From IMG/VR virus record IMGVR_UViG_3300035703_000124, positions 1-54,141 of that record: a stretch of 54,141 nt of DNA; one strand, written 5' to 3'. Below, in pieces: positions 891-48,589 of the stretch (position 1 is the first letter of the stretch; each line of letters begins with the position of its first letter). The translations under genes were made by a program, and so were the position numbers. The notes below the pieces were generated by a model that worked only from the letters and a program-made list of their open reading frames with translations, ran no database searches and was not told the DNA's origin. This DNA comes from a virus. Its lineage: Duplodnaviria > Caudoviricetes.

Positions 891-891
891 T

Positions 892-1881: not shown

Positions 1882-1887
1882 AGTAAT

Positions 1888-2832: not shown

Positions 2833-2833
2833 A

Positions 2834-2862
2834 TAGACAATCTTCAAAGAATCATATATAAT
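2834..2862 (+). promoter_or_regulatory. sigma70-like (early/host-type) promoter
   Basis: TAGACA (2834-2839), 17-nt spacer, TATAAT (2857-2862), upstream of the oxygenase genes. Confidence 0.55.
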
Positions 2863-2892
2863 GGTAATGAATAAATTATAGGAGATTGAGAT

Positions 2893-3513
2893 TTGGCTTT
2901 CCAATCGATTTGGTATTTTTCTGATATTCCAGAAAAAATTATAAAAACAATTGAGGAAGATTTAACAGATAATTTTCAACAACAAATGGGAGACTCCAGA
3001 CTTATGGGGGATGCTCTCAATCGTGATAAAAGAAATTCAAAAAATGCCTGGGTTCCAACAACTCATTGGACGGCAGGATTTGTTTGGCATTATGTTGAAA
3101 GAGCAAATCGTGAAAATTTTCTTTATGATATAAGAAATATTGATGGTGAAAACATGCAATTCACTCAATATAATGAAGGTGAGTTTTATGGATGGCACAA
3201 TGACGCAGGTATTTCGGGACAGTATAAACCAGTATCGGTAGGTAATCATCATGAAGGAAGAGCGCAAGATTATTTGAATGAAAATTTAGAACTTGTAAGA
3301 AAGCTTTCTTTTGTGGTTCAACTTTCAGACCCTGATGATTATGAGGGTGGAAATCTTCAACTTCTTGCGGAAGATGGAAAGTCTTATTTTGCTCCAAGAA
3401 AAAGAGGAACTGTAATTGTTTTTGATTCAAGAACTCAACATCGTGTTCTTAAAGTAACTAAAGGCACACGTAAGAGTCTTGTTGGGTGGGTAGTTGGTTC
3501 GAGGTGGAAATAG
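2893..3513 (+). CDS. 2OG-Fe(II) oxygenase (prolyl-hydroxylase/PKHD-like)
   Basis: TTG start after AGGAG; WHND (HxD), RKLSFVVQLS..DYEGG, distal HRV, GTRKSLVGW (2OG-binding R-x-S). Confidence 0.85.
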   Translation: MAFQSIWYFSDIPEKIIKTIEEDLTDNFQQQMGDSRLMGDALNRDKRNSKNAWVPTTHWTAGFVWHYVERANRENFLYDIRNIDGENMQFTQYNEGEFYGWHNDAGISGQYKPVSVGNHHEGRAQDYLNENLELVRKLSFVVQLSDPDDYEGGNLQLLAEDGKSYFAPRKRGTVIVFDSRTQHRVLKVTKGTRKSLVGWVVGSRWK

Positions 3514-3514
3514 T

Positions 3515-4234
3515 ATGGCGGAACAAATGACAGAAGAGCAATTATTGTTTCAAGAAAGAGTTAACACTGGAACTTCAAAAACAAATAATGATCAATTTGA
3601 AAAAGATGGATACTTGGTTGTAAAAAACCTATGGGATTCAGAAGAACTTTATCGTCCTGTTCCAAAAGAAAGAGGACAAATAAACTATTGGGGAAAAAGA
3701 TTAGATCAATTTACTTATTGTGAATTAGAACAACAAGTTGAAGGATCTCTTGCATGTTATTGGCATCCACAATATCGTTCAATTCATTCTCAAATTCGTT
3801 TAAAGTTGGAAAAAATTCTTGGAAAAAAACTTTATAATACTTATTATTATGATCGGTTTTATTTTCCTGGTCAAGCATTAACATGTCATGCAGATCGTGA
3901 TGCTTGTGAAATTTCTGTAACGACTCATATTAGTACAAATCTAAAGGAACCTTGGCCGATTTGGATTAAGACTCCAGACATTTATGAAGATAAAAATAAA
4001 ACAATTATCACAAAGAAAGGTGAAAATCGTTCTGTAATTTTATCTTCTGGTGATGGAATGATTTATAAGGGTTGTGAAAGACCTCATTGGAGACATCCAA
4101 TGCCTACCGAATATAAGAGAACTTGGTATGGTAGAAGAATAGAAAAGGAAGGTCTTTATTATCATCAAATCTTTTTTCATTATGTTCTTGCTGATGGACA
4201 AAGAGCACACTGTGCAAACGATATGGCAAAATAA
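3515..4234 (+). CDS. 2OG-Fe(II) oxygenase-like protein
   Basis: ATG at 3515 right after the upstream stop; HADRDACEIS (HxD), GDGMIYKGCERPHWR, QIFFHYV. Confidence 0.7.
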   Translation: MAEQMTEEQLLFQERVNTGTSKTNNDQFEKDGYLVVKNLWDSEELYRPVPKERGQINYWGKRLDQFTYCELEQQVEGSLACYWHPQYRSIHSQIRLKLEKILGKKLYNTYYYDRFYFPGQALTCHADRDACEISVTTHISTNLKEPWPIWIKTPDIYEDKNKTIITKKGENRSVILSSGDGMIYKGCERPHWRHPMPTEYKRTWYGRRIEKEGLYYHQIFFHYVLADGQRAHCANDMAK

Positions 4235-4259
4235 TAAATAGTAAAAAATGTGATATAAA

Positions 4260-4469
4260 ATGCCAACTAGTTTATCGTCATTTTTAGGAACTACTTATAA
4301 CGGATTACAAGGTACTCAAGGTCGTCAAGGTACTCAAGGTCTCCAAGGTACTCAAGGTCTCCAAGGTACTCAAGGCACTATTGGATCATTTAGTTCCCAA
4401 GGTGCTCAGGGTCTTCAAGGTCGTTCTGAAATCGGAATTGCTATAATTTCTTGGTTGTCTCCTTCTTAA
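4260..4469 (+). CDS. Mini collagen-like (Gly-X-Gln) protein
   Basis: 69 aa with a (QGT/QGL)n tract, preceded by TAAATA. Confidence 0.7.
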   Translation: MPTSLSSFLGTTYNGLQGTQGRQGTQGLQGTQGLQGTQGTIGSFSSQGAQGLQGRSEIGIAIISWLSPS

Positions 4470-4470
4470 A

Positions 4471-4680
4471 ATGCCCACATCATTAAATACTTTTTTATCA
4501 TCTCAAACTCAGGGACTTCAAGGCACTCAAGGACTTCAAGGTACTCAAGGATTACAAGGCATTCAAGGACTTCAAGGTACTCAAGGTATTCGTGGTGAGT
4601 TAGTAGGACAAGGAACACAAGCAACACTTGCTAAAAATGCTAAAGGTCTTTCAATTCTTGCTTGGTTGACACCTGGATAA
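4471..4680 (+). CDS. Mini collagen-like (Gly-X-Gln) protein, tandem paralog
   Basis: 69 aa; same MPTSL..FL start and WL.P end as 4260..4469. Confidence 0.7.
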   Translation: MPTSLNTFLSSQTQGLQGTQGLQGTQGLQGIQGLQGTQGIRGELVGQGTQATLAKNAKGLSILAWLTPG

Positions 4681-4709
4681 ATATAAATATCTGAAAAAAC
4701 TGAAAGTAA

Positions 4710-5081
4710 ATGGCAGCACCAAATATTGTTAATGTTTCTTCTATCGTAGGTATTACAACTTTTGTTGCTAATATCAGTACAGGTTTTTCGGTAATAATAT
4801 CTAATCCTGCGTCTAGTAATTCAGTATATAAGGTCAATACATTACTTGCTTCTAATACTACTGGATCTTCTGCAAATATTACTGTTGATTACTTTAGTCA
4901 AGCAGCAGGTGCGGGAACATCAGTTTCTATCGGAACAACAATTGCAGTTCCTGCTGGATCTACACTTGCACTGATTGGAAAAGATACACCTCTTTATATT
5001 GAAGAAGATAGATCAATATCGGCACAAGCGGGAACGGCAAATTCAATTGACATTCTGGCATCTTATGAGATTATTAGTTAA
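4710..5081 (+). CDS. Small putative virion protein (beta-rich)
   Basis: 123 aa, MAAPNIVNV... ending ASYEIIS; TAAATA upstream; similar in size and position to 44205 and 46727. Confidence 0.6.
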   Translation: MAAPNIVNVSSIVGITTFVANISTGFSVIISNPASSNSVYKVNTLLASNTTGSSANITVDYFSQAAGAGTSVSIGTTIAVPAGSTLALIGKDTPLYIEEDRSISAQAGTANSIDILASYEIIS

Positions 5082-5086
5082 TAAAA

Positions 5087-6142
5087 ATGTCTAGACTTAT
5101 TGCTGGAAGAATTGGATTTTCCGTAAATGGTGGAGGTTCTGGTGGAATTTTTAATTTTTTAACACAGTATGTTCTTAAAAAACAAGATTTTTGGGAAAAA
5201 ATTAATATAGTAGGAGGAACAGAAAGCACTCCTGGAAATGGATATAAGTATCATTTTTTTACTGGTAGTCAACCACTTGTAGTGTATAATGGTGGATCGG
5301 TAGATTATATTATTGTTGCTGGTGGTGCCGGGGGTGGAGACGGGAATGGTGCTTTTACCGATACTATGGGTGCTGGCGGCGGAGCAGGAGGATATAGAAC
5401 TGGAACTATAAATTTATTTGAAGGACAATATTATGTAATAATAGGATCTGGTGGATTTGGTCCAACTTCAAGTACTGCACCTAGTAATAATATTAATGGA
5501 AATGGATTTCCTTCAATATTGAGATATATTGGGAATATATCTGAACCATCATCTAATGTTTTTATTGACATAGAATCTACTGGTGGGGGTGCAGGTGGAT
5601 ATCATCCTGGCGGGATTAGTGGACGATCTGGAGGTTCTGGTGGAGGAGGTGCTCCCCCAAATGGAACAGGTGGAACAGGAAATACACCCACAACTTCTCC
5701 ATCGCAAGGAAATCCTGGAGGATCTGGCGTTGCATTTGCTGCTGGCGGTGGTGGTGGGTCTGGTGGATCTGGAAGAGGGGGATCAAATCCACCAGCAAAG
5801 GGAGGAAATGGTGGACTTGGTATTGCAGCATTTAATGCTGATTCTGGAATTCCAGCTTCTTATGGTGCTACTGGACCCTCTCCTGGTAGGTGGTTTGCTG
5901 GTGGAGGTGGTGGGGGTGGATCTACTACCGCAGGTTTTGGTGGTGTTGGACCTGGTGCAGGTCCCGGACCATTTGCGGGAGGAGGACCAGGTGGAAGACC
6001 TAGTGTAACTGCAGCCATTAGAAACGGAACAGCAGGAACGGTAAATACTGGTGGTGGTGGAGGAGGAGGTGCTGCTTCACCTACTGGTGGATCTGCTGGA
6101 AACGGAGGATCTGGTATAGTTATTATAAGATATCTTATTTAA
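5087..6142 (+). CDS. Glycine-rich putative virion/fibre-associated protein (paralog 4)
   Basis: 351 aa; TPGNGYKYHFF, PGRWFAGGG, GGSGIVIIRY. Confidence 0.75.
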   Translation: MSRLIAGRIGFSVNGGGSGGIFNFLTQYVLKKQDFWEKINIVGGTESTPGNGYKYHFFTGSQPLVVYNGGSVDYIIVAGGAGGGDGNGAFTDTMGAGGGAGGYRTGTINLFEGQYYVIIGSGGFGPTSSTAPSNNINGNGFPSILRYIGNISEPSSNVFIDIESTGGGAGGYHPGGISGRSGGSGGGGAPPNGTGGTGNTPTTSPSQGNPGGSGVAFAAGGGGGSGGSGRGGSNPPAKGGNGGLGIAAFNADSGIPASYGATGPSPGRWFAGGGGGGGSTTAGFGGVGPGAGPGPFAGGGPGGRPSVTAAIRNGTAGTVNTGGGGGGGAASPTGGSAGNGGSGIVIIRYLI

Positions 6143-6154
6143 ATAAAATGTAAA

Positions 6155-7141
6155 ATGACAAAACATATAGGAAATAGAATTGGATTTGGAGTCAGTACTA
6201 GTTCTGATGGAGGTCTTTTTAACATTACCTCTCAATTTTTCATAAAAAAAGAATCAAGATGGGCATTTACTGCTGGAACATCTACTGGTGGTAGTCAAAC
6301 TCCAACAAATGGATTAGAACCTGGAAATGGATATAGATATCATTTTTTCACAGCAACTGGTCCATTTACTCTTTCTCAGGATACTTATGTTGACTATATG
6401 ATTGTTGGTGGCGGAGGCGCTGGTGGACGTAGTGCTCTTTTTACCGATACTGGTGGTGGTGGAGGTGGTGCTGGAGGATTTAGAACAGGTTCAAATTTAT
6501 TGTTAAAAACTGGTGCATATACTATTACAATTGGGGGTGGTGGTTCTGGACCTGGATTAACATCTGGAAGTTCATCACACATTACTGGATCAGTTGGATT
6601 CACTTCTATTACTTCAACTGGTGGTGGTAGAGGTGGATATTGGGGTCCTCCAAACGTTCCTGGTGTTAATGGTGGTTCTGGTGGTGGGGGAGGAGGTCCA
6701 TCTGGAACGGGTGGAACAGGAAATATACCCACAACTTCTCCATCGCAAGGAAATCCTGGAGGTTTAGGGAATTGGGCTGGCGGTGGCGGCGGAGGTGCAT
6801 TAGAGTCCGGTAGACGAGGTTCAGGACCTCCTGCTTCTATTGGTGGAGGAAGAGGAGGTTCTGGAGCGCAAGCATTTTTTGGAGATCCTGGCGTTCCACC
6901 TTCTTATGGTGCTACTGCACCCTCTCCTGGTAGGTGGTTTGCTGGTGGAGGTGGTGGAGGACCATTTGGCCCTGGTGGATTCGGTGGTGGTGGCAATGGT
7001 GGACCTTCTACACCTGGATCTGGAACTACAAATACTGGTGGTGGAGGAGGTGGAGCAAATAACCCTGCACCAACAGCAACATCTGGTGGATCTGGTGGAT
7101 CTGGTATTGTTATTATTCGTTATTTGATAAATCAATCTTAA
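6155..7141 (+). CDS. Glycine-rich putative virion/fibre-associated protein (paralog 5)
   Basis: 328 aa; EPGNGYRYHFF, PGRWFAGGG, GGSGIVIIRY. Confidence 0.75.
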   Translation: MTKHIGNRIGFGVSTSSDGGLFNITSQFFIKKESRWAFTAGTSTGGSQTPTNGLEPGNGYRYHFFTATGPFTLSQDTYVDYMIVGGGGAGGRSALFTDTGGGGGGAGGFRTGSNLLLKTGAYTITIGGGGSGPGLTSGSSSHITGSVGFTSITSTGGGRGGYWGPPNVPGVNGGSGGGGGGPSGTGGTGNIPTTSPSQGNPGGLGNWAGGGGGGALESGRRGSGPPASIGGGRGGSGAQAFFGDPGVPPSYGATAPSPGRWFAGGGGGGPFGPGGFGGGGNGGPSTPGSGTTNTGGGGGGANNPAPTATSGGSGGSGIVIIRYLINQS

Positions 7142-8199: not shown

Positions 8200-9180
8200 A
8201 TGAGCAATTTTGTAAAACTTGCCTTGGAAAATGGAGGATCTATTTATCCTTTAATTATTCCTTCAATAGATTTAAAGGGACCTGCAATTACAAATCCTTC
8301 TATTTACAATGATAATGGAAGAATTTTTGTAAATCTTAGGAATATTAATTATACACTTTATCACTCTGAGAAAAAAATATTTGAGCATCATTGGGGACCA
8401 TTAGTTTATATTCATCCAGAAAATGATTTACGTCTTCGTACTTGGAATGTGTTTGGTGAACTTGATGAAAATATGAGATTAAAATGGCATACTCATATTG
8501 ATACATCTAAACATCCAGACAAAGAACTTTGGGAGTTTGTGGGACTTGAAGATGCTCGTATTTTTAGATGGGAAGGAAAACTTTACACTTGTGGTGTAAG
8601 AAGAGATCTTGATACCATTGGTACTGGTCGAATGGAACTTTGTGAAATTGAAATTATTGATGGGCAAGTCAAGGAATTAAGTCAACACCGTATTCCAACT
8701 CCAGGAGATAATAAATCGTATTGTGAAAAGAATTGGATGCCAATTCTTGATATGCCTTACCATTTTGTGAAATGGACAAATGGTACTGAAGTTGTTAAGT
8801 ATGATATAAACACAGGAAAAACATCCCAAGTTGCATTGAAAGGCTGGAGAGATTTGGGATGTATTGATCTTCGTGGGGGATCACAAGTTCTTCCTTTTGA
8901 ACAATACAGATTAGCATTAAATCATGAAACATTTTTAACTAAAAGCCCTGCGGGAAGAAAAGATGGAACATATAGACATCGTTTTATTGTTTGGGATAAG
9001 GATTGGAATATTGTAAAAGTTTCAAGAAGGTTTTCTTTCTTGGAAGCAGAGATTGAATTTGCTGTAGGTATGTGTGAATATGGTGATGATTATTTGATTA
9101 CCTTTGGTTTTCAGGATAATGCAGCTTACTTATTAAAAGTAAATAAAGATTTTGTAAAGAATTATATTTTTGAAGAATGA
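8200..9180 (+). CDS. Putative beta-propeller glycoside hydrolase/phosphorylase-like protein
   Basis: NPSI, GLEDARIF, EKNWMP, LRGGS, IEFAVG and TFGFQDN motifs; extended -10 TGCTATAAT at 8172-8180. Confidence 0.5.
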   Translation: MSNFVKLALENGGSIYPLIIPSIDLKGPAITNPSIYNDNGRIFVNLRNINYTLYHSEKKIFEHHWGPLVYIHPENDLRLRTWNVFGELDENMRLKWHTHIDTSKHPDKELWEFVGLEDARIFRWEGKLYTCGVRRDLDTIGTGRMELCEIEIIDGQVKELSQHRIPTPGDNKSYCEKNWMPILDMPYHFVKWTNGTEVVKYDINTGKTSQVALKGWRDLGCIDLRGGSQVLPFEQYRLALNHETFLTKSPAGRKDGTYRHRFIVWDKDWNIVKVSRRFSFLEAEIEFAVGMCEYGDDYLITFGFQDNAAYLLKVNKDFVKNYIFEE

Positions 9181-9929
9181 AAATAGCAGTTTGTGTTTCT
9201 GGTGGTGTTAGATATACACATTTAGGATTAAAAAGTATTCAGAAAATTGTTCCAAATGAATATGTAAAAATTTTTATCCATACTTGGAAAGTTAAAGATG
9301 TAAATTCTTTTTTGAACACAGTCTCTGGATTGCAACATAAAGAACAAGATAAAGTTATTGAAACTAATCTTTCACTATTAGAAGAATATAATTATGAAAA
9401 ATTATTAATTGAAAATTATGATAAATGTCAGAAAAAATTTCAAAATCTTTTAGATAGTTTGAAATTTATTCCTTCAATAGACACTGAAGATACTGAACCA
9501 AGAACTGATGTTGGTCCTATCAGTATGCACTATTCAATATATAAAGCGAATGAATTGAAAAAGGAATATGAGAAAGAAAATAATATAAAATTTGATTGGG
9601 TAATTCGGATGAGAACTGATAGTGATTTCCGTTATGAACAGTTGGATTTAAATACTTTGAACCATGAGTTAAACATTCCTTCTGGTGAAGATTGGGGAGA
9701 TAATTCAATTAATGATCAATTTGCTATTGGAACTTCTCATGCAATGGACTTATATTCAAGTCTTTACAATAATTTTCATTATACTCAAAGCACTAAATTT
9801 TATCCAGAAAGAATTCTTGCATTGCATTTAAAAAATGTAAATTTAATTCCAAATCGAGTAGATTTTCCTGTTAGAATTAATAATGGAATTGATTTTAGAA
9901 AAGTTTGGTATCCTCATTTAGTTGAATGA
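9177..9929 (+). CDS. Putative glycosyltransferase-like protein
   Basis: MKIAVCVSG..R, FIHTW, FDWVIRMRTD, NDQFAIG and PE motifs; glycan-island context. Confidence 0.5.
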   Translation: MKIAVCVSGGVRYTHLGLKSIQKIVPNEYVKIFIHTWKVKDVNSFLNTVSGLQHKEQDKVIETNLSLLEEYNYEKLLIENYDKCQKKFQNLLDSLKFIPSIDTEDTEPRTDVGPISMHYSIYKANELKKEYEKENNIKFDWVIRMRTDSDFRYEQLDLNTLNHELNIPSGEDWGDNSINDQFAIGTSHAMDLYSSLYNNFHYTQSTKFYPERILALHLKNVNLIPNRVDFPVRINNGIDFRKVWYPHLVE

Positions 9930-9932
9930 AAG

Positions 9933-10676
9933 ATGATATCATTTAATAATATTGGTCATATGGGACGTTTGGGAAATCAAATGTTCCAGTATGCTGGAGT
10001 CAAAGGAGTAGCAATTCATAAAGGATATTGGTATTCTGTACCTTCTAACACTTCTTTGAATCAGTGTTTTAAAATACCAGAAACATTATCTAACAACAAT
10101 AGCAGGATTGTTAATGTAGAAAGGTTTGAATTTGATGAGGAGTTCTTCAATAATTGCCCTGATGATGTTGACGTGTGTGGATATTTTCAATCAGAAAAAT
10201 ACTTTAAGCATATAGAGAATCAGATTAGACAAGACTTTATTTTTCATGATAGAATATTGAAAGAATGTTTATCTTATCGGAGTACCTTATCAGGCACTCA
10301 TTTAATATCACTACATATTAGAAGAAGTGATTATATTAGCGATCTAAATTTTGAGTGTCTTTCACTTGATTATTATTGGAACGCAGTAAAACTTCTACCA
10401 AACTTCCCAGTGATAGTTTTTAGTGATGATCTAGAATGGTGTAAAAAACAGTTCAGTCAAGATCCGTTTATTATCTCTCCATTTGAAGATCCTTTTTTTG
10501 ATCTTTGCTTAATGTCTCTTTGCGATTATCACATTATTGCCAACTCCTCATTCTCTTGGTGGGGATCTTGGTTATCAAATAGTAAGCAAACAATTGCTCC
10601 CAGAAAATGGTTTTCCGGTGAATTTTCAAACTGGAATACTAAAGATTTATATTTACCCGAATGGATTATAATTTAA
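9933..10676 (+). CDS. Alpha-1,2-fucosyltransferase (GT11 family)
   Basis: GRLGNQMFQYA, GYFQSEKYF, HIRRSDY, VFSDD, IIANSSFSWWG. Confidence 0.9.
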   Translation: MISFNNIGHMGRLGNQMFQYAGVKGVAIHKGYWYSVPSNTSLNQCFKIPETLSNNNSRIVNVERFEFDEEFFNNCPDDVDVCGYFQSEKYFKHIENQIRQDFIFHDRILKECLSYRSTLSGTHLISLHIRRSDYISDLNFECLSLDYYWNAVKLLPNFPVIVFSDDLEWCKKQFSQDPFIISPFEDPFFDLCLMSLCDYHIIANSSFSWWGSWLSNSKQTIAPRKWFSGEFSNWNTKDLYLPEWIII

Positions 10677-11413
10677 AAAATACTATGAATTTTTCTTCTG
10701 ATTTACATAATAAAGCAATTATTGATACTGGATATGAATATCGTGGAAGGTTTTCAAATTCTTATGTTTATACTGGATTTGTCGATAATTTCATGAAAAA
10801 AATTCATGAAAAAGAGTGGGATGGTCCAAAAGTTTATCTTGATATTGGATCTAGAGATTTAATGCAAACCATAGAGGTTGCACAGTATCATCCAAATACT
10901 AGATTTATTGCATTCGAACCTGTTCCTTGGCAATATCAGGTTTGTTATGAAAGAAGTTTGGAGTGGGATAATATCGAAGTTTATAATTATGCCATCTCTG
11001 ATAAGGAAGGACTTGCTGATTTTTGGCAATTAGATACAAACACGGGAGCATCATCATTGTTAGAACCAATGCATGATATTCCTGCTAGTAATAATATAAG
11101 TAAAAAGATTATAGTTGAATGTAAAAGACTTGATAATTTTCTTCCTACTATAGGAGTAAATTCTGTAGATTGTTTATGGATTGATACTCAAGGTACAGAA
11201 CTCAATGTCTTAAAAAGTTTAGGAAAGTATATTGACAATGTAATGTTTATACACACGGAGGCATCTCCCAAACCTTATTACAAAAATCAAAATATAAAAA
11301 GTGAGATTGAAACATTTTTATACATGAAAGGATTTGAAATGGAATTTACATCTTGTCCAGGACATCCATATGGAGAAGGAGATATAATTGCATCAAGGAG
11401 AAATATAAAGTGA
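10661..11413 (+). CDS. FkbM-family SAM-dependent methyltransferase
   Basis: YLDIGS, AFEP, AISD..G, GASSLL, LWIDTQGTEL.VL; alternative start at 10685. Confidence 0.85.
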   Translation: MDYNLKNTMNFSSDLHNKAIIDTGYEYRGRFSNSYVYTGFVDNFMKKIHEKEWDGPKVYLDIGSRDLMQTIEVAQYHPNTRFIAFEPVPWQYQVCYERSLEWDNIEVYNYAISDKEGLADFWQLDTNTGASSLLEPMHDIPASNNISKKIIVECKRLDNFLPTIGVNSVDCLWIDTQGTELNVLKSLGKYIDNVMFIHTEASPKPYYKNQNIKSEIETFLYMKGFEMEFTSCPGHPYGEGDIIASRRNIK

Positions 11414-12321
11414 AAATTTTATATGTTTATAATTTTGCTTACTTAGATTATCAATCTGATACTGTTTATCATGGTTTGATTGATAGTGGTATGGATGTTT
11501 ATGAAACTCATTATCCATCATATATGTTAAATGGATTTGTCTTTGATAAGCAATCTATGTATGGAGATGTTTGGCAAGATATCTATGGAGGACTGCCAGG
11601 AACAACTTTTACTCTATATGGTAAATTAGATTATACTCCTAAAGTTGAATCTGGAGAAATTATCATTGATAAGATTAAATCAAAATTTTATGATATTGTA
11701 ATTTATGGATGTGTTTATGATCATGATGGAATGCCAAGAAGAAAATGTTTAGATTACCTTGATGAAGTAATTAAATATTATTCTAAACATGAAATTCATT
11801 TTATTGATGGATCTGATAATTCTTGGAATTATGCCCACTCTAATGGGTTAGCACCATATGGGACTATATGGAAAACTCAGTTGGAAAGTATTGGTGCAGG
11901 GAATCCAATTTGTTTTGGTATTCCTGAATCGCAATTAATTAAATCAAATCCAAAAAAAGAAAAATTATTTGCGGATATTATTCCAGGAATTAAAAAAACA
12001 TATGTTTACTCTGATGAAGAATCATATTATAATGATTATGCAAAATCTTATTATGGGATGACTTGGAAAAAAGGGCAGTGGAATTGTATGAGGCATCTTG
12101 AAATTCTTGCAAATAAGTGTATTCCATATTTTCCAGATATTGAAGATTGCCCTCCTTTTGTGATGATGGATTTCCCGAAGGAGGTATTTAGAGAAACTAA
12201 TAAATACGCTAGAAAGTATGAAATTCATCCAAATTATGAATGGATTAATGATTATATTTTTGATTATACTAAAAATAATTTGACCACTAAGAAAATTGTT
12301 GAGAGGTTTTTTAGAAAATGA
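11410..12321 (+). CDS. Putative glycosyltransferase (GT-B-like)
   Basis: GTG start overlapping the upstream TGA; KKGQWNCMRHLEILANKCIPYF C-terminal motif. Confidence 0.5.
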   Translation: MKILYVYNFAYLDYQSDTVYHGLIDSGMDVYETHYPSYMLNGFVFDKQSMYGDVWQDIYGGLPGTTFTLYGKLDYTPKVESGEIIIDKIKSKFYDIVIYGCVYDHDGMPRRKCLDYLDEVIKYYSKHEIHFIDGSDNSWNYAHSNGLAPYGTIWKTQLESIGAGNPICFGIPESQLIKSNPKKEKLFADIIPGIKKTYVYSDEESYYNDYAKSYYGMTWKKGQWNCMRHLEILANKCIPYFPDIEDCPPFVMMDFPKEVFRETNKYARKYEIHPNYEWINDYIFDYTKNNLTTKKIVERFFRK

Positions 12322-12920
12322 AAGTCGTTCAAATAGGGACAAATAGAGCAAATGATGATCTTTCAAACTATTTGAAATCTAACTGCAAAAATAATTTTAA
12401 CAAGTTAAATTTTGGATTATTTGTTGAAGCAAATAGTATTCATATTAATGACATCAAAAATTGCTATTCAGATTATGAAAATATTTTTGTCGAAAACGTA
12501 GCAATAAAATCTCCATTTCAAACTGGAGATGAACTTGAAATTTTTTACAATACTCTTGATGTTAATGGAGAAATTTCATCGTGCAAATATGATCACGTAT
12601 ATACTCATACAATATGGTGTCCAGAAATTTGCCATGGAGAAATTAAATCATTCAAGGTTCCCTGCATATCACTAGAAACTTTGTTGGACAAATATAAAAT
12701 TTCCTATTTGGATTGGCTTTTGCTGGATGTTGAGGGAATAGATGCGGAACTTTTATTGACTTTTAATTGGAAAAAATATGAAATTAAAAAAATAGAATTT
12801 GAACATTTACATCTTGGAGATTATTCTTATACCATCGAACATATGTTGATTGGTATGGGATATAAAAGAGTGGATTCTTTAAGTCAAAATGATTGGGCTT
12901 TTGAAAATAAAAATGAATGA
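12318..12920 (+). CDS. FkbM-family methyltransferase
   Basis: VQIG.N, FVEAN, ENVAI, LLLDVEGID, IEFEH. Confidence 0.8.
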   Translation: MKVVQIGTNRANDDLSNYLKSNCKNNFNKLNFGLFVEANSIHINDIKNCYSDYENIFVENVAIKSPFQTGDELEIFYNTLDVNGEISSCKYDHVYTHTIWCPEICHGEIKSFKVPCISLETLLDKYKISYLDWLLLDVEGIDAELLLTFNWKKYEIKKIEFEHLHLGDYSYTIEHMLIGMGYKRVDSLSQNDWAFENKNE

Positions 12921-13648
12921 ATATAATAATTCCAATGGCAGGTGAGGGAACAAGATTTCCTAGAGACACTTATAAAATTCCAAAACCTTTGATTGACATT
13001 AAAGGGATTCCAATGATTCAAAGAGCAATTAACTCTCTTGGATTGAATGGGACTTATCATTTTGTAATCAGAAAAGATAGTTATTATGATCAGGTTTGCA
13101 CATTACTTCATAAAATATTATTAGATCCAAAAATTATAAGTGTAGAAGAAACTACAGAGGGACCTGCAGCAAGTTGTCTTCTCTTTAAAGATTTTATTAA
13201 TGACGAAGAAGAACTTGTGATTGCAAACTGTGATCAGATTATGTGGTGGGATCCAAATTTATTTCTTAATACTGCACGTTATTATAAGTATGATGGTCTT
13301 ATTGTGACCTATTCAACCACGACTCCTAAAAACAGTTATGCAAGAATCGATCAACAAGGATTTGTTCAAGAAGTTAAAGAGAAAGAAGTGATTAGTGATA
13401 TATCTTTAAACGGAATTCATTATTGGAGAAAGGGAAAATACTTTGTGCAAAGTGCAGAAGATATGATAAAATGTAATGATAGAGCACCCAATGGTGAATT
13501 TTATGTAGGACCCTCTTATAACCATATGATTAAACGTGGACTTAAGGTTGGAGTACATCACATCCCAAATTATCAGCATATCCCAGTTGGAGTTCCAGAG
13601 GATTTGAATTCATTTCTAGAAAAGTATGAACGTAACAAAAATTACTGA
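12917..13648 (+). CDS. Sugar-phosphate nucleotidyltransferase (NTP_transferase family)
   Basis: IIIPMAGEGTRF, PKPLIDI.G.PMI, TEGPA, IANCDQ, EKEVIS, NGEFYV. Confidence 0.85.
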   Translation: MNIIIPMAGEGTRFPRDTYKIPKPLIDIKGIPMIQRAINSLGLNGTYHFVIRKDSYYDQVCTLLHKILLDPKIISVEETTEGPAASCLLFKDFINDEEELVIANCDQIMWWDPNLFLNTARYYKYDGLIVTYSTTTPKNSYARIDQQGFVQEVKEKEVISDISLNGIHYWRKGKYFVQSAEDMIKCNDRAPNGEFYVGPSYNHMIKRGLKVGVHHIPNYQHIPVGVPEDLNSFLEKYERNKNY

Positions 13649-13946
13649 TTATGTGAGAGGTTGGTTTATTGGAAACTTTGAACCATCTCTTTTGAAAACA
13701 CCTGACTTTGAGGTAGGATTACTATCACATAAGAAAGGTGAACATTGGGCACCGCATTATCATAAAGAAAGTGTAGAATATAATGTTCTTGTTTCTGGAA
13801 AAATGGTAGTTCAAGGAAAGGAACTGAATAGTGGAGATGTATTTGTATTAGATAAGAGAGAAGTTGCTGATCCAATTTTTCTAGAAGACTGTACATTAGT
13901 CGTCGTTAAAGTTCCTTCTATTCCTTCTGATAAGTTTGAGGTTTGA
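13626..13946 (+). CDS. Cupin-domain protein
   Basis: GWFIGNF, HYHKESVEYNVLVSG (cupin metal motif 1), GDVFVL. Confidence 0.75.
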   Translation: MNVTKITDYVRGWFIGNFEPSLLKTPDFEVGLLSHKKGEHWAPHYHKESVEYNVLVSGKMVVQGKELNSGDVFVLDKREVADPIFLEDCTLVVVKVPSIPSDKFEV

Positions 13947-13947
13947 A

Positions 13948-15186
13948 ATGAAATTCTTCAGAGAATTAACTGATCAAGAAAGAGATCGTTGTGTTGTTGC
14001 AACGTATTATATTGAATCCTATAAAGAAGTTGGGACACTTAGAGATGCTGCATGGAATCTTGCGATTGGACAAAGTGTAGGTAATCCAAAAGTTCGTAAT
14101 CGCTGGGAGAGTGATGAACTGTTTGAACTTGCATCTTGCATCGTCTATGCTGATGAAGATGAACTTTCACAACTCACAGAAGGTGTGGTAAAGATTGGTT
14201 TCCCTAAAGTGAATACTGATTGGGAAGGCGATGGAATCTCACACCTTCTCTGCCAACTAATGGGTGGTCAACTGGACATTGATGTTTTCAAAGTTTGCAG
14301 ACTGCAAAAGTTGGATTTTCCTTCTGATGTTGAAGCATCATTCATTGGACCTAAAAATGGTATTGATGGTATTCGTAAGTTTGTCAATCGTTACGACAAG
14401 CCTCTTTCTGGTGCGATTGTAAAACCAAAGACTGGAATCTCCCCACAAACTCTTTCTGAAATGGTGAAAGAACTTCTTGATGGTGGTGTAGACTTTATTA
14501 AAGAAGATGAGATTCTTTCTAATCCTTCATTCTGCCGTCTTGAAGATCGTGTGGAATTGATTTCTAATATTGTCAATAACTGTGGTCGTAATGTAATCTA
14601 TGCATTCTGTATTAATGGTGATCACCATACCATTCTTGATCGTGCTAAGTTTGTTTCTGATAATGGTGGAAATGGTATTCATATTAATTTTTGGTCTGGT
14701 CTTGGGGTTTATAACTCTGTTAGAAAGATGGACCTACCACTGTTTATCCATTATCAAAAAAGTGGGGACAAAATTCTTACGGATAAACGCCACTCATTTG
14801 GAATAGATTGGGACGTTCTTTGTGACCTTGCTGGTCTCTGCGGTGTAGATACGATTCACGCTGGAATGTGGGGTGGATACTTGAGTGATGATGAAAATGA
14901 ACTTTGCCAAACTATGGAAATACTTCATAATCGTAATGTTCTTCCAGCATTGAGTTGTGGGATGCATCCTGGCATCGTCAACACGACTGCAGAGAAGTTT
15001 GGTACAGACTTCCTCGCCAACTGCGGAGGTGCCGTACACGGGCACCCAGGGGGCACTCTGGCGGGTGCTCTGGCAATGCGTCAAGCAATTGATAAAACTC
15101 CTGGAGCAGAGTTTCGTGCCGCTATTGATAAGTGGGGATATGAAACTGGGGGAGGTTCTTTACCAGAATGGGTTTTAGATTTTTGA
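13948..15186 (+). CDS. RuBisCO-like protein (Form IV, RLP)
   Basis: GAIVKPKTG, GGVDFIKEDE, GVDTIHAG, PALSCGMHPG, NCGGAVHGHPGG..AGA.AMRQA; about 412 aa, full N-domain plus TIM barrel length. Confidence 0.92.
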   Translation: MKFFRELTDQERDRCVVATYYIESYKEVGTLRDAAWNLAIGQSVGNPKVRNRWESDELFELASCIVYADEDELSQLTEGVVKIGFPKVNTDWEGDGISHLLCQLMGGQLDIDVFKVCRLQKLDFPSDVEASFIGPKNGIDGIRKFVNRYDKPLSGAIVKPKTGISPQTLSEMVKELLDGGVDFIKEDEILSNPSFCRLEDRVELISNIVNNCGRNVIYAFCINGDHHTILDRAKFVSDNGGNGIHINFWSGLGVYNSVRKMDLPLFIHYQKSGDKILTDKRHSFGIDWDVLCDLAGLCGVDTIHAGMWGGYLSDDENELCQTMEILHNRNVLPALSCGMHPGIVNTTAEKFGTDFLANCGGAVHGHPGGTLAGALAMRQAIDKTPGAEFRAAIDKWGYETGGGSLPEWVLDF

Positions 15187-15187
15187 T

Positions 15188-15652
15188 ATGAAAATTATTT
15201 CTCATCGTGGAAATCTAGTTGGACCTAATCCGATTAGAGAAAATAGTGTTGACTATATCGAAGAAGCAATTGCTGAAGGATTCGATGTTGAAATTGATTT
15301 GAGAGTCGAGGATGATGAGTTCTATCTTGGGCACGATGATCCTCAATACTTTGTGACCATGGAATGGTTGAGAAAATATAAGGATGTTCTTTGGATTCAT
15401 TGTAAGAATTTAGAGGCACTTGAAAAACTATCTACTTCTGTGGTAAAATTTAATTACTTTTGGCACGAGTCTGACAAATATACAATCACTAGTAAAGGAG
15501 TCGGGTGGTCTTTAGTAGGAGAAACTCCTTATTCTAATTCGGTTATTGTTATGCCAGAAATGACAGAATTGAATGATGAATATATAAAGAATAGTTTTGG
15601 TATATGTACTGACTTACCAATTTTTTATAAGAACAAATTTTTAAACTTTTGA
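15188..15652 (+). CDS. GDPD/PLC-like phosphodiesterase (short form)
   Basis: IISHRGN, ENS..YI..AI..GFDVEIDL, LGHD, WIHCKN, GICTD. Confidence 0.75.
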   Translation: MKIISHRGNLVGPNPIRENSVDYIEEAIAEGFDVEIDLRVEDDEFYLGHDDPQYFVTMEWLRKYKDVLWIHCKNLEALEKLSTSVVKFNYFWHESDKYTITSKGVGWSLVGETPYSNSVIVMPEMTELNDEYIKNSFGICTDLPIFYKNKFLNF

Positions 15653-15656
15653 TTTT

Positions 15657-18644
15657 ATGAATTCGCTAAAAAACAAAAAAATATCTATTATTACCGCATG
15701 TAAAAACAGAATTGATGCTCTTAAAGTATCATTAATGTCATGGTTAAATTTTAAAGAAATACATGAAGTTATTATAGTTGATTGGAGTTCTGATGAACCA
15801 ATTGATTATCTTACTAAATTAGATCCTAGAGTTAAGGTAGTTAGAGTTTCTGATAAACAATACTTTAATCAACCAAAACCTTTAAATCTTGCTGCTAAAA
15901 TTGCAACAGGAGATTATATTTTGAAGGTTGATTCTGATCATACATTTAATCCATATTACAGTGGTATTTCAAAATATTTTCCAGAAGAAAAATCTTTTGT
16001 TTGTGGTAGACTGAATTATAAGTCACCACAATATTGGTCTGAAGAACATCAAGCTTACATAATATCGGATGAATACCTTTCGAATTCACAAAATAGGGTG
16101 CAATATGTTTATTCTTATGCTCCTGTTTTTAGATACTTAACTGGTATTCTTTATGTTAAAAAAGAATATTTTGATTCTGTTGGTGGATATAATGAAAATC
16201 TTGGTGATTGTTATGCATATGAGGATGATGAATTGTATTCTAGACTTGAATTATTTGGTCTTGAACAAAAAGGTCTTGACTTAGATTTTTATTTTATACA
16301 TTTACCTCATCCAGATAAAAAAAGAATAGAAAATTTTAAAGGTTTTGATTGGCAGGAAAAGTATGAAGAGTTAGTTCGAGAAAAATTATCTCCGATGCAC
16401 AGTGGTGATGAATTAGATTGGCAGGTTGAATATGCTCTTTCAGAAAAACATGTTGAAGAAAATAAAGAAAAATTTGGAGATGTAAATCATTACTACGTTC
16501 AACCAAAAACACAATGGAATATCATTCAGATAGATGAACAAAACTATGCTGCATTTGAAATTGCTGATGAATTAATACATAATAAACTCGAAGACTTTCC
16601 ATCAGTTTACTGTATAAGTCTTGAAGAATCTTCCGACAGGAGAACTTATTTAAATAATCAATTTAAAAAATATGATATAAAACCTACGTTTCTAATATCT
16701 AAACGTTATTCTGAGTCTAATGACAATATTGTAGGAAAATATGTGTATAGTTTAAATGATGGTACAAAGGGATGTTGTGTATCACATTTAAAAATGATTA
16801 AATATTGGTACGAAAATACTAATGAAGAGTATGCTTTCTTTTGTGAAGATGATCTGAGTTTAGAAACCGTAGATTATTGGGACTTTAATTGGGAACAATT
16901 TATTGAAAAGTTGCCAGATGATATTGATTGTATTCAACTTCTTACTATTCGAAATGAGTATGATACGTTTGAATTGAGACCAAGATATTGGGATGATTGG
17001 GGAGCAACTGCATATATCTTAACCAGAGAAGGTGCCAAAAAAATTATTGATACGTACATTAAAGGTGATACTTACGTATTGGAAATTGCAAATCAAGAAA
17101 TAATGCCTTTGATTGAAAATATTATTTTTGCATCTGTGGTTAGCACTTATACTATTCCATTATTTGTTGAAAATATATCGTTTAAATCTACTTTTGAACA
17201 TCAAGATAATGATGTGAAAGAAGGACATAAAAATAATCATAAAATCTCTCATGATCTTATTTTAAATATGTGGAAATCAAAAAAACAAGTTTTTTCAGAT
17301 TCTGAAAAAATAAAAAATAAAGTTGAAGTAGAAAAAACAGAACTTGAAAAACTTTTAGAATCATATTCTTTAGATACAGAAAATCCAGAACACAATTTTA
17401 ATCTTGGTGTTTGGTATGAAAATCAAGGACACACTGCGCCTGCACTTTCATACTTTTTAAGATGTGCTGAAAGAGCAGCAGAAACTGATACTACTCTTGC
17501 ATATGAATCTCTTATTCGCGGATCTTATTGTTACTTTAAACAAGGTACAAGGGACGGAAGTGGTAGAGGAATGTTATGGCAAGCACAAATGCTTTTACCA
17601 AATCGTCCAGAAGCTTATTTTTTACTTGCAAGATATGCTGCTAAACAAGAATGGTGGCAAGATTGTTATTCTAATTGTGAGTTAGGATTACTTCATTGTG
17701 ATTTTAATCTCCCATCTTTGAGAACAAATGTTGAATATCCTGGAAAATATGGACTCTTATTTCAAAAAGCGATATCTGGATGGTGGTGGGGAAAGGTTGA
17801 AGAGTCTAGATCATTACTTCTTGACATATTAAGTAATTATGAGACATCTGAATCTGATAAGGAGACGATTAAAAACAATCTTAAAAAAATGGGAATTGAT
17901 AATGTAGAAGATAATCTATCGGTCAAGGATATAAATTTTAATTATCCAGAAGATTTTAATTGGTCTAATTTAACTTATGAAGATATTATAACTATTGAAA
18001 GAGAAGTGGTCCATGAAAAGGTGTATAGATTTTGGAACGATGTCGAAGAAAATGATGTAGTTCTTGATATTGGAGCAAGTGTTGGTGCTTATGCAATTTC
18101 TATTTTAGATCAAAAACCAAAAAAAGTTTATTGTGTTGAACCATCTGAAAATTTCTTAAAGATATTATCTGAAAATTGTTTCAAAAAAACATCTTCATAT
18201 TCTCAAAATCCATTAGTCTGTATTAATTGTGGTATAATTGATGATCAAAATGATCAGATTAATATTTTTGGAGGAGAAAATAAGTTTGTTCCTATGACAT
18301 TTAAAAATATGATTGAAAGATATTCAATTGATCATGTTAATTATATGAAAGTTGATTGTGAAGGTGGTGAGTATTCAATTTTTAAAGATGAAAATATAGA
18401 GTTTCTAAAAAATAAAGTCGATTTTATTGCGATGGAAATGCATTTAAATTACTCTGGTTGCAGAGAAAAGTTTAAAGAATTTAGAGACAAATACTTAATT
18501 CAATTTAAAAATTATAAAGTAATGTCTTGTACAAGACAGAATATTTCTTGGGGAAATTCAATAGATATTAAAGATAAAATTTTTGACAATTCTTTTATTG
18601 ATAATTACACATGTGAATTTATGATATATATAAAAAATCGTTAA
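15657..18644 (+). CDS. Multidomain glycan-modifying protein: GT2-like + GT25-like + TPR + FkbM methyltransferase
   Basis: N-term ISIITACKNR, VDWSS, KVDSD, GGYNE..YEDDE; middle VYCISL..S.DRR, GC..SHL, FCEDD; TPR-like helices (P.RPEAYF); C-term VLDIGASVG, CVEP, MKVDCEGGEY. Confidence 0.8.
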   Translation: MNSLKNKKISIITACKNRIDALKVSLMSWLNFKEIHEVIIVDWSSDEPIDYLTKLDPRVKVVRVSDKQYFNQPKPLNLAAKIATGDYILKVDSDHTFNPYYSGISKYFPEEKSFVCGRLNYKSPQYWSEEHQAYIISDEYLSNSQNRVQYVYSYAPVFRYLTGILYVKKEYFDSVGGYNENLGDCYAYEDDELYSRLELFGLEQKGLDLDFYFIHLPHPDKKRIENFKGFDWQEKYEELVREKLSPMHSGDELDWQVEYALSEKHVEENKEKFGDVNHYYVQPKTQWNIIQIDEQNYAAFEIADELIHNKLEDFPSVYCISLEESSDRRTYLNNQFKKYDIKPTFLISKRYSESNDNIVGKYVYSLNDGTKGCCVSHLKMIKYWYENTNEEYAFFCEDDLSLETVDYWDFNWEQFIEKLPDDIDCIQLLTIRNEYDTFELRPRYWDDWGATAYILTREGAKKIIDTYIKGDTYVLEIANQEIMPLIENIIFASVVSTYTIPLFVENISFKSTFEHQDNDVKEGHKNNHKISHDLILNMWKSKKQVFSDSEKIKNKVEVEKTELEKLLESYSLDTENPEHNFNLGVWYENQGHTAPALSYFLRCAERAAETDTTLAYESLIRGSYCYFKQGTRDGSGRGMLWQAQMLLPNRPEAYFLLARYAAKQEWWQDCYSNCELGLLHCDFNLPSLRTNVEYPGKYGLLFQKAISGWWWGKVEESRSLLLDILSNYETSESDKETIKNNLKKMGIDNVEDNLSVKDINFNYPEDFNWSNLTYEDIITIEREVVHEKVYRFWNDVEENDVVLDIGASVGAYAISILDQKPKKVYCVEPSENFLKILSENCFKKTSSYSQNPLVCINCGIIDDQNDQINIFGGENKFVPMTFKNMIERYSIDHVNYMKVDCEGGEYSIFKDENIEFLKNKVDFIAMEMHLNYSGCREKFKEFRDKYLIQFKNYKVMSCTRQNISWGNSIDIKDKIFDNSFIDNYTCEFMIYIKNR

Positions 18645-18652
18645 TTTTAACT

Positions 18653-18889
18653 ATGAATTTCACAGTTTATTCAAAACCAGGTTGCCCTTATTGTGATAAA
18701 GTTAAAAACGTGTTAGAGTTGACAAAACTCCAACACGTCGTGTATACTTTGGATAAGGACTTTACCAGAGAAGGATTTTATGCAGAATTTGGTGAAGGAT
18801 CTACATTTCCACAAGTAATTTGTAATGATAAAAAGTTAGGAGGATGCGTTGACACAATCAAATTCCTCAAAGAACAACAAATCGTCTGA
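18653..18889 (+). CDS. nrdC: Glutaredoxin
   Basis: CPYC active site, TFPQV, LGGC. Confidence 0.9.
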   Translation: MNFTVYSKPGCPYCDKVKNVLELTKLQHVVYTLDKDFTREGFYAEFGEGSTFPQVICNDKKLGGCVDTIKFLKEQQIV

Positions 18890-48487: not shown

Positions 48488-48518
48488 AATCACTTCAGAT
48501 CTAAGGGTCTGATTTTCT

Positions 48519-48589
48519 GGGATGTCGTCTATTGGTTAAGACCCACTGTTTCTAACAGTGTAAAGAGGGTTCAATTCCCTCCAGTCCTA
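48519..48589 (+). tRNA. Degenerate tRNA, anticodon TCT (Arg) as written; probable pseudo-tRNA
   Basis: D arm GTCT/AGAC, anticodon arm CACTG-TTTCTAA-CAGTG, T arm GAGGG-TTCAATT-CCCTC; acceptor GGGA-TG/CAGTCCT lacks one 5' base. Confidence 0.65.

Follow-up and report, generated by a model that had tools for sequence, protein, structure and literature searches.

A RuBisCO-like protein clade paired with nucleotidyltransferases and cupins in glycan loci of phages, bacteria and archaea

Introduction

The RuBisCO-like proteins (RLPs) include MtnW/YkrW, an enolase of methionine salvage, and the RLP of Rhodospirillum rubrum, a 5-methylthioribulose-1-phosphate isomerase that works with a cupin methylsulfurylase. 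Here we analyse an RLP encoded by a virus, on a stretch of DNA of 54,141 nucleotides (IMG/VR virus record IMGVR_UViG_3300035703_000124, positions 1 to 54,141; the whole stretch is called the window below), where it is the third gene of a four-gene module set in a glycosylation island. The first gene (ORF1) encodes a nucleotidyltransferase, the second (ORF2) a cupin, and the fourth (ORF4) a small protein with a partial resemblance to GDPD-family phosphodiesterases. Relatives of this RLP are encoded beside a nucleotidyltransferase in phages, bacteria and archaea and are in rare cases fused to it, and the comparison of these sequences suggests that RLP, nucleotidyltransferase and cupin probably work together in making an activated sugar.

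Several described systems resemble parts of this module. The MtnW/YkrW and DeepYkrW enzymes enolise a ketose 1-phosphate through a lysine-carbamate/Mg2+ site, the chemistry we would expect of the RLP described here, and this group too has an RLP partnered with a cupin. The OiaX/OiaT-type RLPs of D-apiose catabolism (NF042437), found on rhizobial plasmids, are the nearest sampled group, with ~28-32% identity to the RLP of the window, but their genes lie beside acid-sugar kinases and not nucleotidyltransferases. An NTP_transferase domain and a small cupin isomerase belong to one pathway, or one polypeptide, in the bifunctional type II phosphomannose isomerase/GDP-mannose pyrophosphorylases of the AlgA/XanB type, and mannose-1-phosphate guanylyltransferases are the best characterised PDB matches of our nucleotidyltransferase profile. 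The module differs from AlgA/XanB in having a RuBisCO-fold enzyme as an obligatory third partner and no phosphomutase, and its cupin is not PF01050 by Pfam. In the GT11/GT25 island of Synechococcus phages B3 and B23 (MN695334/5; gp358-gp359), a nucleotidyltransferase gene is immediately followed by an ORF4 homolog with 75.9% nucleotide identity. This transferase carries a fused HAD_2 (phosphomutase/phosphatase-type) domain, neither RLP nor cupin is present, and the arrangement resembles a module of the same kind with another front end.

That phages encode RLPs is already known. Jaffe, Castelle, Dupont & Banfield (bioRxiv 10.1101/386292; Mol Biol Evol 2019, PMC6389311) reported phage 'Form IV-like' RLPs on IMG/VR myovirus contigs, ~90 non-redundant sequences in the preprint (10.1101/386292) and ~80 in the journal version (PMC6389311), and left their function open. 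An earlier reading of the window from its letters alone, here called the original prediction, had mentioned phage-borne sequences of this kind, and they are indeed in print. The article (PMC6389311) describes these RLPs as highly divergent, with partial catalytic residues and clustering with few cellular sequences, and the window is an IMG/VR record of such a kind. Its main text does not mention glycosyl, nucleotidyl or cupin, and supplementary figure S1, a phage genome map, may show the neighbours. A review names 'IV-GOS' as a clade of ocean-sampling RLPs, which may be the same group as ours. In the searchable literature no paper ties an RLP to nucleotidyltransferases, to cupins in glycan loci, or to O-antigen, polysaccharide or glycosyltransferases; judged from titles, abstracts and passages, none of the RLP papers found that involve cyanophages or SAR11 concerns this clade, and the only one found in connection with auxiliary metabolic genes is that of Jaffe et al. 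What is added here, and is new as far as our searches show, is the conserved pairing with nucleotidyltransferase and cupin, the existence of fusions, an active-site signature that does not vary within the clade, the spread of the clade over both cells and viruses, and the biosynthetic reading.

A distinct RLP clade

The RLP of the window belongs to the RuBisCO large-subunit superfamily, matching PF00016 (RuBisCO_large) over residues 142-386 with 149 bits (cut-off 30.1) and 96 PDB sequences of RuBisCOs and RLPs at E<=1e-10. It falls below the NCBIfam cut-offs for form III (199.9 against 497.45 bits), form I/III (193.7 against 438) and form II RuBisCO (106 against 489), all of which typed references pass (form III 581, form I 801 and form II 888 bits). 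It also falls below those of the MtnW/YkrW equivalogs (165.5 against 409 and 127.6 against 513.6) and of OiaX, the 3-oxo-isoapionate-4-phosphate decarboxylase (152.7 against 700).

We placed the protein in a 56-row tree whose references, drawn from alphaproteobacterial and archaeal genomes, comprise forms I, II and III, five OiaX-like, ten MtnW/DeepYkrW-like and three sub-threshold form-I-like proteins, and include no Bacillus-type YkrW/MtnW and no IV-Photo sequence. In this tree 32 dereplicated RLPs encoded next to a nucleotidyltransferase make up one clade (SH-aLRT 100, stem 1.22) apart from every reference, that is, from forms I-III and from the OiaX-like and DeepYkrW-like RLPs. The HMM match and this position agree with the full-length Form IV-type RLP that the original prediction had seen in the third gene. 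The OiaX-like RLPs are a weakly supported sister of the clade (SH-aLRT 86), the only hint we have toward the branched or acid sugar that had been suggested as a product. The sole fetched homolog without a nucleotidyltransferase neighbour (L121) lies outside the clade.

Viral rows of the tree are nested among rows from SAR11, Crocinitomicaceae and Verrucomicrobiota, which implies repeated transfer of the gene between cells and viruses. Both the clade and its pairing with a nucleotidyltransferase occur in SAR11, Verrucomicrobiota, Bacteroidota, Legionellaceae, Elusimicrobiota and DPANN archaea, and the idea of a specifically viral use of the RuBisCO fold has to be given up. Among 7854 candidates 2620 are RLP relatives at E<=1e-3, and 248 IMG/VR contigs encode such relatives. 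A tblastn search with the RLP returned no match among 50,697 phage records, a collection that may leave out the window's own genome. The PLSDB plasmids hold no clade member: the 348 records found are all below 60% identity, and those listed, at 28-32%, are of OiaX type or RuBisCO family.

Active-site signature

Catalytic positions were mapped through a form I reference, with residue roles and numbering as in the spinach enzyme. All 32 clade members keep K175, K177, K201, D203, E204, S379, G381 and G403, and all 32 carry the substitutions E60G, T65N, N123G, T173I, H294Q, K334Y and G380C; R295K, H298D and a retained H327 are each present in 29 of the 32. The glycines that bind the P1 phosphate (G381, G403 and G404) are kept. 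Read against RuBisCO, this pattern leaves both the Mg2+/carbamate core for enolisation and the cradle of the P1 phosphate intact; the residues for CO2 addition are gone, and the distal (P2) site has been remade from Arg/His/His to Lys/Asp/His. With K334, H294, E60 and N123 replaced throughout, the protein cannot work as a carboxylase, and because the carbamylated-lysine/Mg2+ machinery is kept it most likely enolises its substrate and does not fix CO2. The same residues are invariant from Legionella proteins (36-38% identity) to those of phages, which argues for one specific reaction across the clade.

The signature also sets the clade apart from the other RLPs in the tree. OiaX-like proteins share K175, K201, D203, E204 and H327 with it, but they keep H294, R295, K334, E60 and N123, which the clade has replaced. 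DeepYkrW-like proteins have K177Q, E204H, R295P and hydrophobic substitutes for H327, where the clade has K177, E204, R295K, H298D and H327.

Three alphaproteobacterial genomes of 1.6-2.0 Mb (L140, L141 and L142) encode another kind of divergent protein, which groups with form I RuBisCO (SH-aLRT 99) and has lost nearly every catalytic residue (K175R, K201C, D203P, E204T, H294C/A, K334G/S). The open frames are 532-586 amino acids (aa) long and reach 266-328 bits, where the form I/III cut-off is 438.

Conserved linkage and gene fusions

Linkage was counted by tblastn with the window's own proteins in the best 80 of the 248 IMG/VR contigs and in 40 cellular loci from species-representative genomes. 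A nucleotidyltransferase gene lies within 400 bp of the RLP gene in 67 of the 80 viral and 36 of the 40 cellular loci; the corresponding figures are 66 and 9 for a cupin within 1.2 kb, 69 and 18 for ORF4 within 6 kb, and 53 and 6 for all four genes. The 13 viral loci lacking a close nucleotidyltransferase comprise nine with one at 1-2.6 kb, three cut at the RLP edge and one without any; in all 30 cellular loci whose flanks reach 1.1 kb or more on each side, the gene is within 400 bp. The linkage holds for RLPs of 95% to as little as 36% identity and in both prokaryotic domains. Gene order varies, from nucleotidyltransferase-cupin-RLP-ORF4 in most phages to ORF4-nucleotidyltransferase-RLP in SAR11-like loci and RLP-nucleotidyltransferase or RLP-cupin-nucleotidyltransferase in most other cells, and the pairing of RLP and nucleotidyltransferase persists through all of these orders. 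The locus of Azospirillum oleiclasticum RWY-5-1-1 (L110) reads ORF4-RLP-cupin-nucleotidyltransferase. The original prediction had named salvage or catabolic operons devoid of the nucleotidyltransferase, cupin and GDPD partners as the finding that would speak against it; the closest homologs show the opposite in that they keep the nucleotidyltransferase.

Two proteins, P0121 (813 aa) and P0122 (817 aa), carry RLP (residues 1-390), nucleotidyltransferase (398-639) and cupin (710-810) in a single chain. They are 52% identical over their full length, which indicates that the fusion is old and real. P0178 is a fusion of ORF4 and RLP, and P0203 one of cupin and ORF4. By Rosetta-stone reasoning, these chains argue that RLP, nucleotidyltransferase and cupin, and more loosely ORF4, act in one process.

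The wider neighbourhood is rich in glycan genes. We clustered the 1671 ORFs within 6 kb of an RLP, the RLP itself being located by tblastn (E<=1e-10) in the fetched loci and the window; its own cluster covers 116 loci. DUF7796-like proteins recur in 50 loci, SDR epimerases/dehydratases in 35, a WavE-like cluster in 26 and methyltransferases in 22, and less common neighbours are DegT aminotransferases (10 loci), radical SAM proteins (8), asparagine synthases (6) and sugar C-methyltransferases (6). The 137 neighbour ORFs of 18 cellular loci have GDP_Man_Dehyd/Epimerase (5), LicD (4), GT2 (4) and GT1 (4) as their top Pfam families. Methionine-salvage families are absent from the 25 commonest Pfam families of these ORFs and, by Pfam, from the window's island, in keeping with the earlier remark that no salvage or catabolic genes are visible. 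Around the Pelagibacter pair lie genes for a HAD-nucleotidyltransferase fusion, a GT9, a CMP-sugar-synthetase-like protein and a 2-hydroxyacid dehydrogenase. Hypermodification of DNA was considered as a target and dropped: the neighbours are GT11, GT25, GT2 and FkbM genes, and the cellular homologs lie in glycan loci.

The RLP-nucleotidyltransferase pair of Legionella nautarum is beside LicD. In locus L113 the LicD (147 bits) adjoins the pair, with an asparagine synthase a few kb away. Four ORFs of the carboxymuconolactone decarboxylase (CMD) family are found along with the four LicD ORFs among the 137; the others are taken, from ORFs of corresponding size and position, to be those of the other three Legionellaceae loci among L113, L115 and L116 (Legionella spp.) and L114 (Tatlockia).

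The nucleotidyltransferase and the cupin

ORF1 is a member of the NTP_transferase family (PF00483, 35.1 bits, cut-off 21.2) and matches phrog_3980 at 5e-60. Residues G9, G11 and R13 of its N-terminal G-x-G-x-R motif are invariant in 28 RLP-adjacent nucleotidyltransferases, and the profile of these 28 relatives has a full-length match (9e-36) to 4evw, an 'NDP-sugar pyrophosphorylase' that is itself uncharacterised. Mannose-1-phosphate guanylyltransferases, GlmU, HddC-like proteins and RmlA follow at 1e-12 to 1e-7 over 120-225 positions, and IspD (2e-5), LicC (1.6e-4) and inositol-1-phosphate cytidylyltransferase match at the N-terminal nucleotide loop only. The profile favours a sugar 1-phosphate as the substrate; a phospho-alcohol or phospho-acid, which would suit the LicD of Legionellaceae, is a further candidate.

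The same transferase family includes fusions of HAD_2 and NTP_transferase domains of 456-457 aa, in Synechococcus phage B3 (gp358-gp359; L001, 6631-8453) and in Pelagibacter (L084, 770-2140). Five DPANN archaeal loci (L089, L094, L096, L104 and L105) have two or three nucleotidyltransferase paralogs within a few kb of the RLP, of which one adjoins the RLP and the others lie on the opposite strand, by a short ORF4-like match.

ORF2 is a member of the cupin superfamily by profile and motif. Its single sequence has only a Pfam match to Cupin_7 (20.1 bits, below the cut-off of 27), and in the atlas the closest clusters that carry a name are Cupin_2 (0.96). An alignment of 34 sequences has H44 and E51 invariant and H46 in at least 90%, giving the cupin motif 1 (H-x-H-x4-E), and the profile of these relatives matches solved cupins in the PDB at 3e-6 to 1e-2, with a weak match to a 113-aa 'mannose-6-phosphate isomerase' (2e-3). 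ORF2 also matches phrog_24762 at 1e-34. Pfam finds no 4,6-dehydratase or aminotransferase in the window's glycan island, and a role as the FdtA-type 3,4-ketoisomerase of the standard 6-deoxyhexose pathway was dropped because that pathway's 4,6-dehydratase is missing there.

ORF4

ORF4 is the loosest member of the module. It matches phrog_34507 (1e-33) and no Pfam family at E<=0.01. The profile of 42 relatives matches GDPD structures (3.7e-5 and 1.9e-4), with most of the alignment in the ~50 N-terminal residues. H6, R7, G8, N19, E35, D37, H49, H71 and K73 are invariant among the relatives, and H6, R7, E35, D37 and H49 align with the GDPD structures over profile positions 2-52. These may correspond to the GDPD catalytic motif (H-R, an E-x-D metal site and a second His), with the putative position of the third metal ligand read as H71-x-K73 and not E-x-K. 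A structure model (pLDDT 97) has only GDPDs as its top Foldseek matches, at E values of 1e-2 to 3e-2 and TM on target of 0.22-0.41, and none at E<=1e-3. ORF4 has 154 aa against 217-328 aa for these targets. We rejected a complete GDPD (PF03009), given the missing Pfam match and a length too short for the ~220-330-aa (beta/alpha)8 barrel. The original prediction called this protein a phosphodiesterase; what survives of that label is a weak and partial resemblance, and ORF4 may best be described as a truncated GDPD-like protein.

The ORF4 family extends far beyond the module, with 3131 representatives at E<=1e-3. Among the 21 longer proteins in its best 150 matches, seven are fused to DUF7796-like domains and three to domains resembling methyltransferases or FkbM. 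No PDB match exists for the partner domains in two fusions (P0142 and P0125), and a direct comparison found no homology between ORF4 and the FkbM-like family. The size of the family, its occurrence without an RLP in phages B3 and B23 and its fusions to DUF7796-like domains argue that ORF4 is an accessory of glycan machinery, not a part of the RLP's own pathway.

Proposed function and alternatives

Our preferred reading, which we consider probable though well short of certain, is that RLP, nucleotidyltransferase and cupin jointly make a nucleotide-activated sugar donor for surface glycans. From the genes, folds, active-site pattern, conserved linkage and fusions, we infer an order of steps, a substrate, a nucleotide and a glycan target (host envelope or virion) as follows. 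The RLP would enolise a sugar phosphate whose alpha-hydroxy-ketone lies next to a phosphate-bearing carbon and re-protonate it to an isomer or epimer, and the cupin would probably carry out a second isomerisation. The nucleotidyltransferase would couple the resulting sugar phosphate to a nucleoside monophosphate to give an NDP-sugar, which the glycosyltransferases and FkbM enzymes of the island would use; ORF4 would have an accessory part in the wider glycan machinery, handling phosphodiesters. The biosynthetic sugar-nucleotide role that the original prediction had given to all four genes is thus kept as the best reading of the linkage and the RLP-nucleotidyltransferase-cupin fusions, with ORF4 only loosely attached to it.

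If the reading is true, the heavily studied RuBisCO superfamily would gain a new reaction class, and abundant aquatic microbes (SAR11, DPANN) and their viruses would have a surface sugar made by a new route; in these groups surface glycans are believed to influence how phage and host recognise each other. Through the conserved pairing and fusion, an unknown RLP becomes a hypothesis that can be tested at the bench with three proteins or with a single fusion protein.

Several observations weigh against it. No characterised RLP is known to act outside salvage or catabolism, so that a biosynthetic role would be the first. The RLP-adjacent nucleotidyltransferases are no subfamily of their own: eight label changes are needed on a poorly resolved tree, in which HAD-fused paralogs are nested, and since the RLP-adjacent copies are not one clade, specific co-evolution of RLP and nucleotidyltransferase is unsupported. 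The cupin, present in only nine of the 40 cellular loci, appears dispensable for the core reaction. The three-domain fusions are two among 5545 longer candidates. Lastly, LicD, a phospho-alcohol transferase, is beside the pair in four Legionellaceae loci, which suits a CDP-alcohol-type donor better than an NDP-sugar.

A more specific version of the preferred reading is possible, and we offer it no more than tentatively. Here the RLP would be the first RuBisCO-superfamily enzyme dedicated to nucleotide-sugar biosynthesis, epimerising or isomerising a ketose 1-phosphate via a 2,3-enediolate. Its product would be converted by the cupin to an aldose 1-phosphate, from which the transferase would make a rare NDP-sugar destined for the surfaces of phages, SAR11, DPANN archaea and others, with the phages re-decorating the host envelope or their own fibres. 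Because the cupin would go from ketose 1-phosphate to aldose 1-phosphate, the module would need no phosphomutase, whereas the RLP-less variant of phage B3 and SAR11 has a HAD mutase-type domain fused to its transferase.

The order of the steps could also be reversed, which strikes us as doubtful. Activation of a common sugar phosphate by the nucleotidyltransferase would come first; the RLP, together with the cupin, would then isomerise or epimerise the NDP-linked keto-sugar by enolisation, in the manner of the RmlC/FdtA-type cupins and SDR enzymes of deoxysugar pathways. The SDR 4,6-dehydratase/epimerase genes in 35 loci and the DegT genes in 10 fit such a scheme, as would a faint, non-significant WxcM-like match of the cupin profile (0.55), and room for a nucleotide could come from K334Y and from E60G, T65N and N123G, which replace N-domain residues that in RuBisCO close over the P1 side. 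However, without a dehydratase or aminotransferase in the window's island an NDP-4-keto sugar would need a host source, the P1 glycines are kept as in monophosphate-binding relatives, and no RLP is known to bind a nucleotide-sugar.

Rather unlikely, in our view, is a product that is a CDP- or NDP-activated phospho-alcohol or phospho-acid, made by the logic of LicC/LicD, TarI or CofC and transferred to glycans as a phosphodiester substituent, with ORF4 handling the phosphodiester. It is favoured by the LicD genes of the Legionellaceae loci, by the GDPD-like H-R ... E-x-D ... H pattern that ORF4 keeps and by the OiaX-like enzymes, the nearest sampled RLPs, which act on phospho-keto-acids. LicD, however, adjoins the pair in that one lineage only and by Pfam is absent from the window, and the match of LicC, IspD and inositol-1-phosphate cytidylyltransferases to the nucleotidyltransferase profile is weak and confined to the N-terminus.

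That the RLP is a classical salvage or catabolic enzyme (acting on methylthioribulose-1-phosphate or diketo-methylthiopentyl-1-phosphate, or decarboxylating an acid sugar), carried by phages as an auxiliary metabolic gene among coincidental neighbours, seems to us highly improbable. Such jobs are the only RLP roles known from experiment, RLP and cupin do pair in the MTA shunt of Rhodospirillum rubrum and in methionine salvage, and there is similarity to MtnW and OiaX at the sub-threshold level. Those scores, though, are far below the cut-offs, the clade and its active-site pattern are distinct from the DeepYkrW-like and OiaX-like proteins, salvage families are missing from the commonest neighbour families of the cellular loci, and the linkage and fusion to a nucleotidyltransferase are hard to explain on this basis. 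A working CO2-fixing RuBisCO, to which the best NCBIfam and PDB similarities (form III; 8dht, 3.3e-40) might point, or a decayed non-catalytic remnant is scarcely credible, given for the former the replaced K334, H294, E60 and N123 and the score below the form III cut-off, and for the latter invariant metal and carbamate residues, strong constraint (dN/dS 0.059) and a large clade.

The locus and its surroundings

The four overlapping or abutting ORFs of the original prediction were recovered at the same coordinates (Table 1). The start codon of ORF1 is overlapped by the stop of the upstream FkbM-like gene (ATGA, 4 nt), ORF1 and ORF2 overlap by 23 nt, and one nucleotide separates the TGA of ORF2 from the ATG of the RLP and the TGA of the RLP from the ATG of ORF4; this spacing suggests that the genes are co-translated. 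The ORF listing gives the RLP as 416 aa from a TTG at 13936. Its relatives are mostly 412 aa long and their alignments begin at residue 4-5, so the start is probably the ATG used in Table 1.

Table 1. Features of the module, the glycan island and other parts of the window
Feature	Coordinates	Strand	Evidence
Five tandem paralogous glycine-rich ORFs (295+, 329, 314, 351 and 328 aa)	3..7141		Gly_rich_2 (PF21722) in each
2OG-Fe(II) oxygenase	2893..3513		PF13640, 57.6 bits
Upstream half of glycan island: unknown 326-aa ORF, DUF7796-like, GT11, FkbM methyltransferase, unknown 322-aa ORF, FkbM-like	8200..12920	+	Pfam
ORF1, 243-aa sugar-1-phosphate-type nucleotidyltransferase (4evw-like)	12917..13648	+	PF00483, phrog_3980, profile search
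ORF2, 106-aa single-domain cupin, H44-x-H46-x4-E51 triad	13626..13946	+	alignment, profile search, phrog_24762
ORF3, RuBisCO-like protein (RLP), 412 aa from ATG	13948..15186	+	PF00016, tree, active-site table
ORF4, 154-aa truncated GDPD-like alpha/beta protein, putative accessory	15188..15652	+	phrog_34507, profile, structure model
995-aa GT2/GT25/FkbM-methyltransferase multidomain protein	15657..18644	+	PF00535, PF01755, PF02709, PF05050
78-aa ORF with CPYC motif, glutaredoxin/NrdH-type look	18653..18889		read from translation
tRNA-Arg(TCT)	48518..48589		RNA family search

By Pfam the island extends over ~8.2-18.6 kb and flanks the module with a GT11, a DUF7796 protein, three FkbM-type methyltransferase domains and the 995-aa GT2/GT25/FkbM protein. 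The gene for the last begins 5 nt past ORF4, and its product is a likely user of the activated donor; residues ~470-790 of this protein have no Pfam match.

All four module genes are under purifying selection. Median pairwise dN/dS against viral relatives is 0.085 for ORF1 (25 pairs), 0.131 for ORF2 (26 pairs), 0.059 for the RLP (32 pairs) and 0.133 for ORF4 (10 pairs), values that are rough because dS is near 1.

Mis-assembly of the island, a concern raised with the original prediction, is excluded by two observations: the gene order of the module recurs in dozens of independent IMG/VR contigs, and contigs from runs of other studies span the nucleotidyltransferase/cupin, cupin/RLP and RLP/ORF4/glycosyltransferase junctions. 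Near-identical DNA is present in freshwater and wastewater metagenome runs of those studies; the stretch 11000-12900 has little or no cover in runs outside the probable source run.

The window (CheckV completeness 26) is a fragment of a T4-like phage. Its 20-40 kb part matches 21 records, all of them from T4-like cyanophages or marine single viruses; identity is 71-79%, and cover does not exceed 25% of the query (best match, 74.7% identity with 25% cover). The photosystem gene psbA (PF00124) is not found in the 54-kb fragment, which at this completeness is uninformative on the host.

Upstream of the island, the five glycine-rich paralogs may be fibre-like structural proteins and thus candidate targets of glycosylation. 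The 2OG-Fe(II) oxygenase gene lies among them, and the CPYC-containing ORF follows directly past the other end of the island. The tRNA-Arg is the sole RNA family found in the window, and Synechococcus phage B3 also has a tRNA-Arg-TCT near its glycan island.

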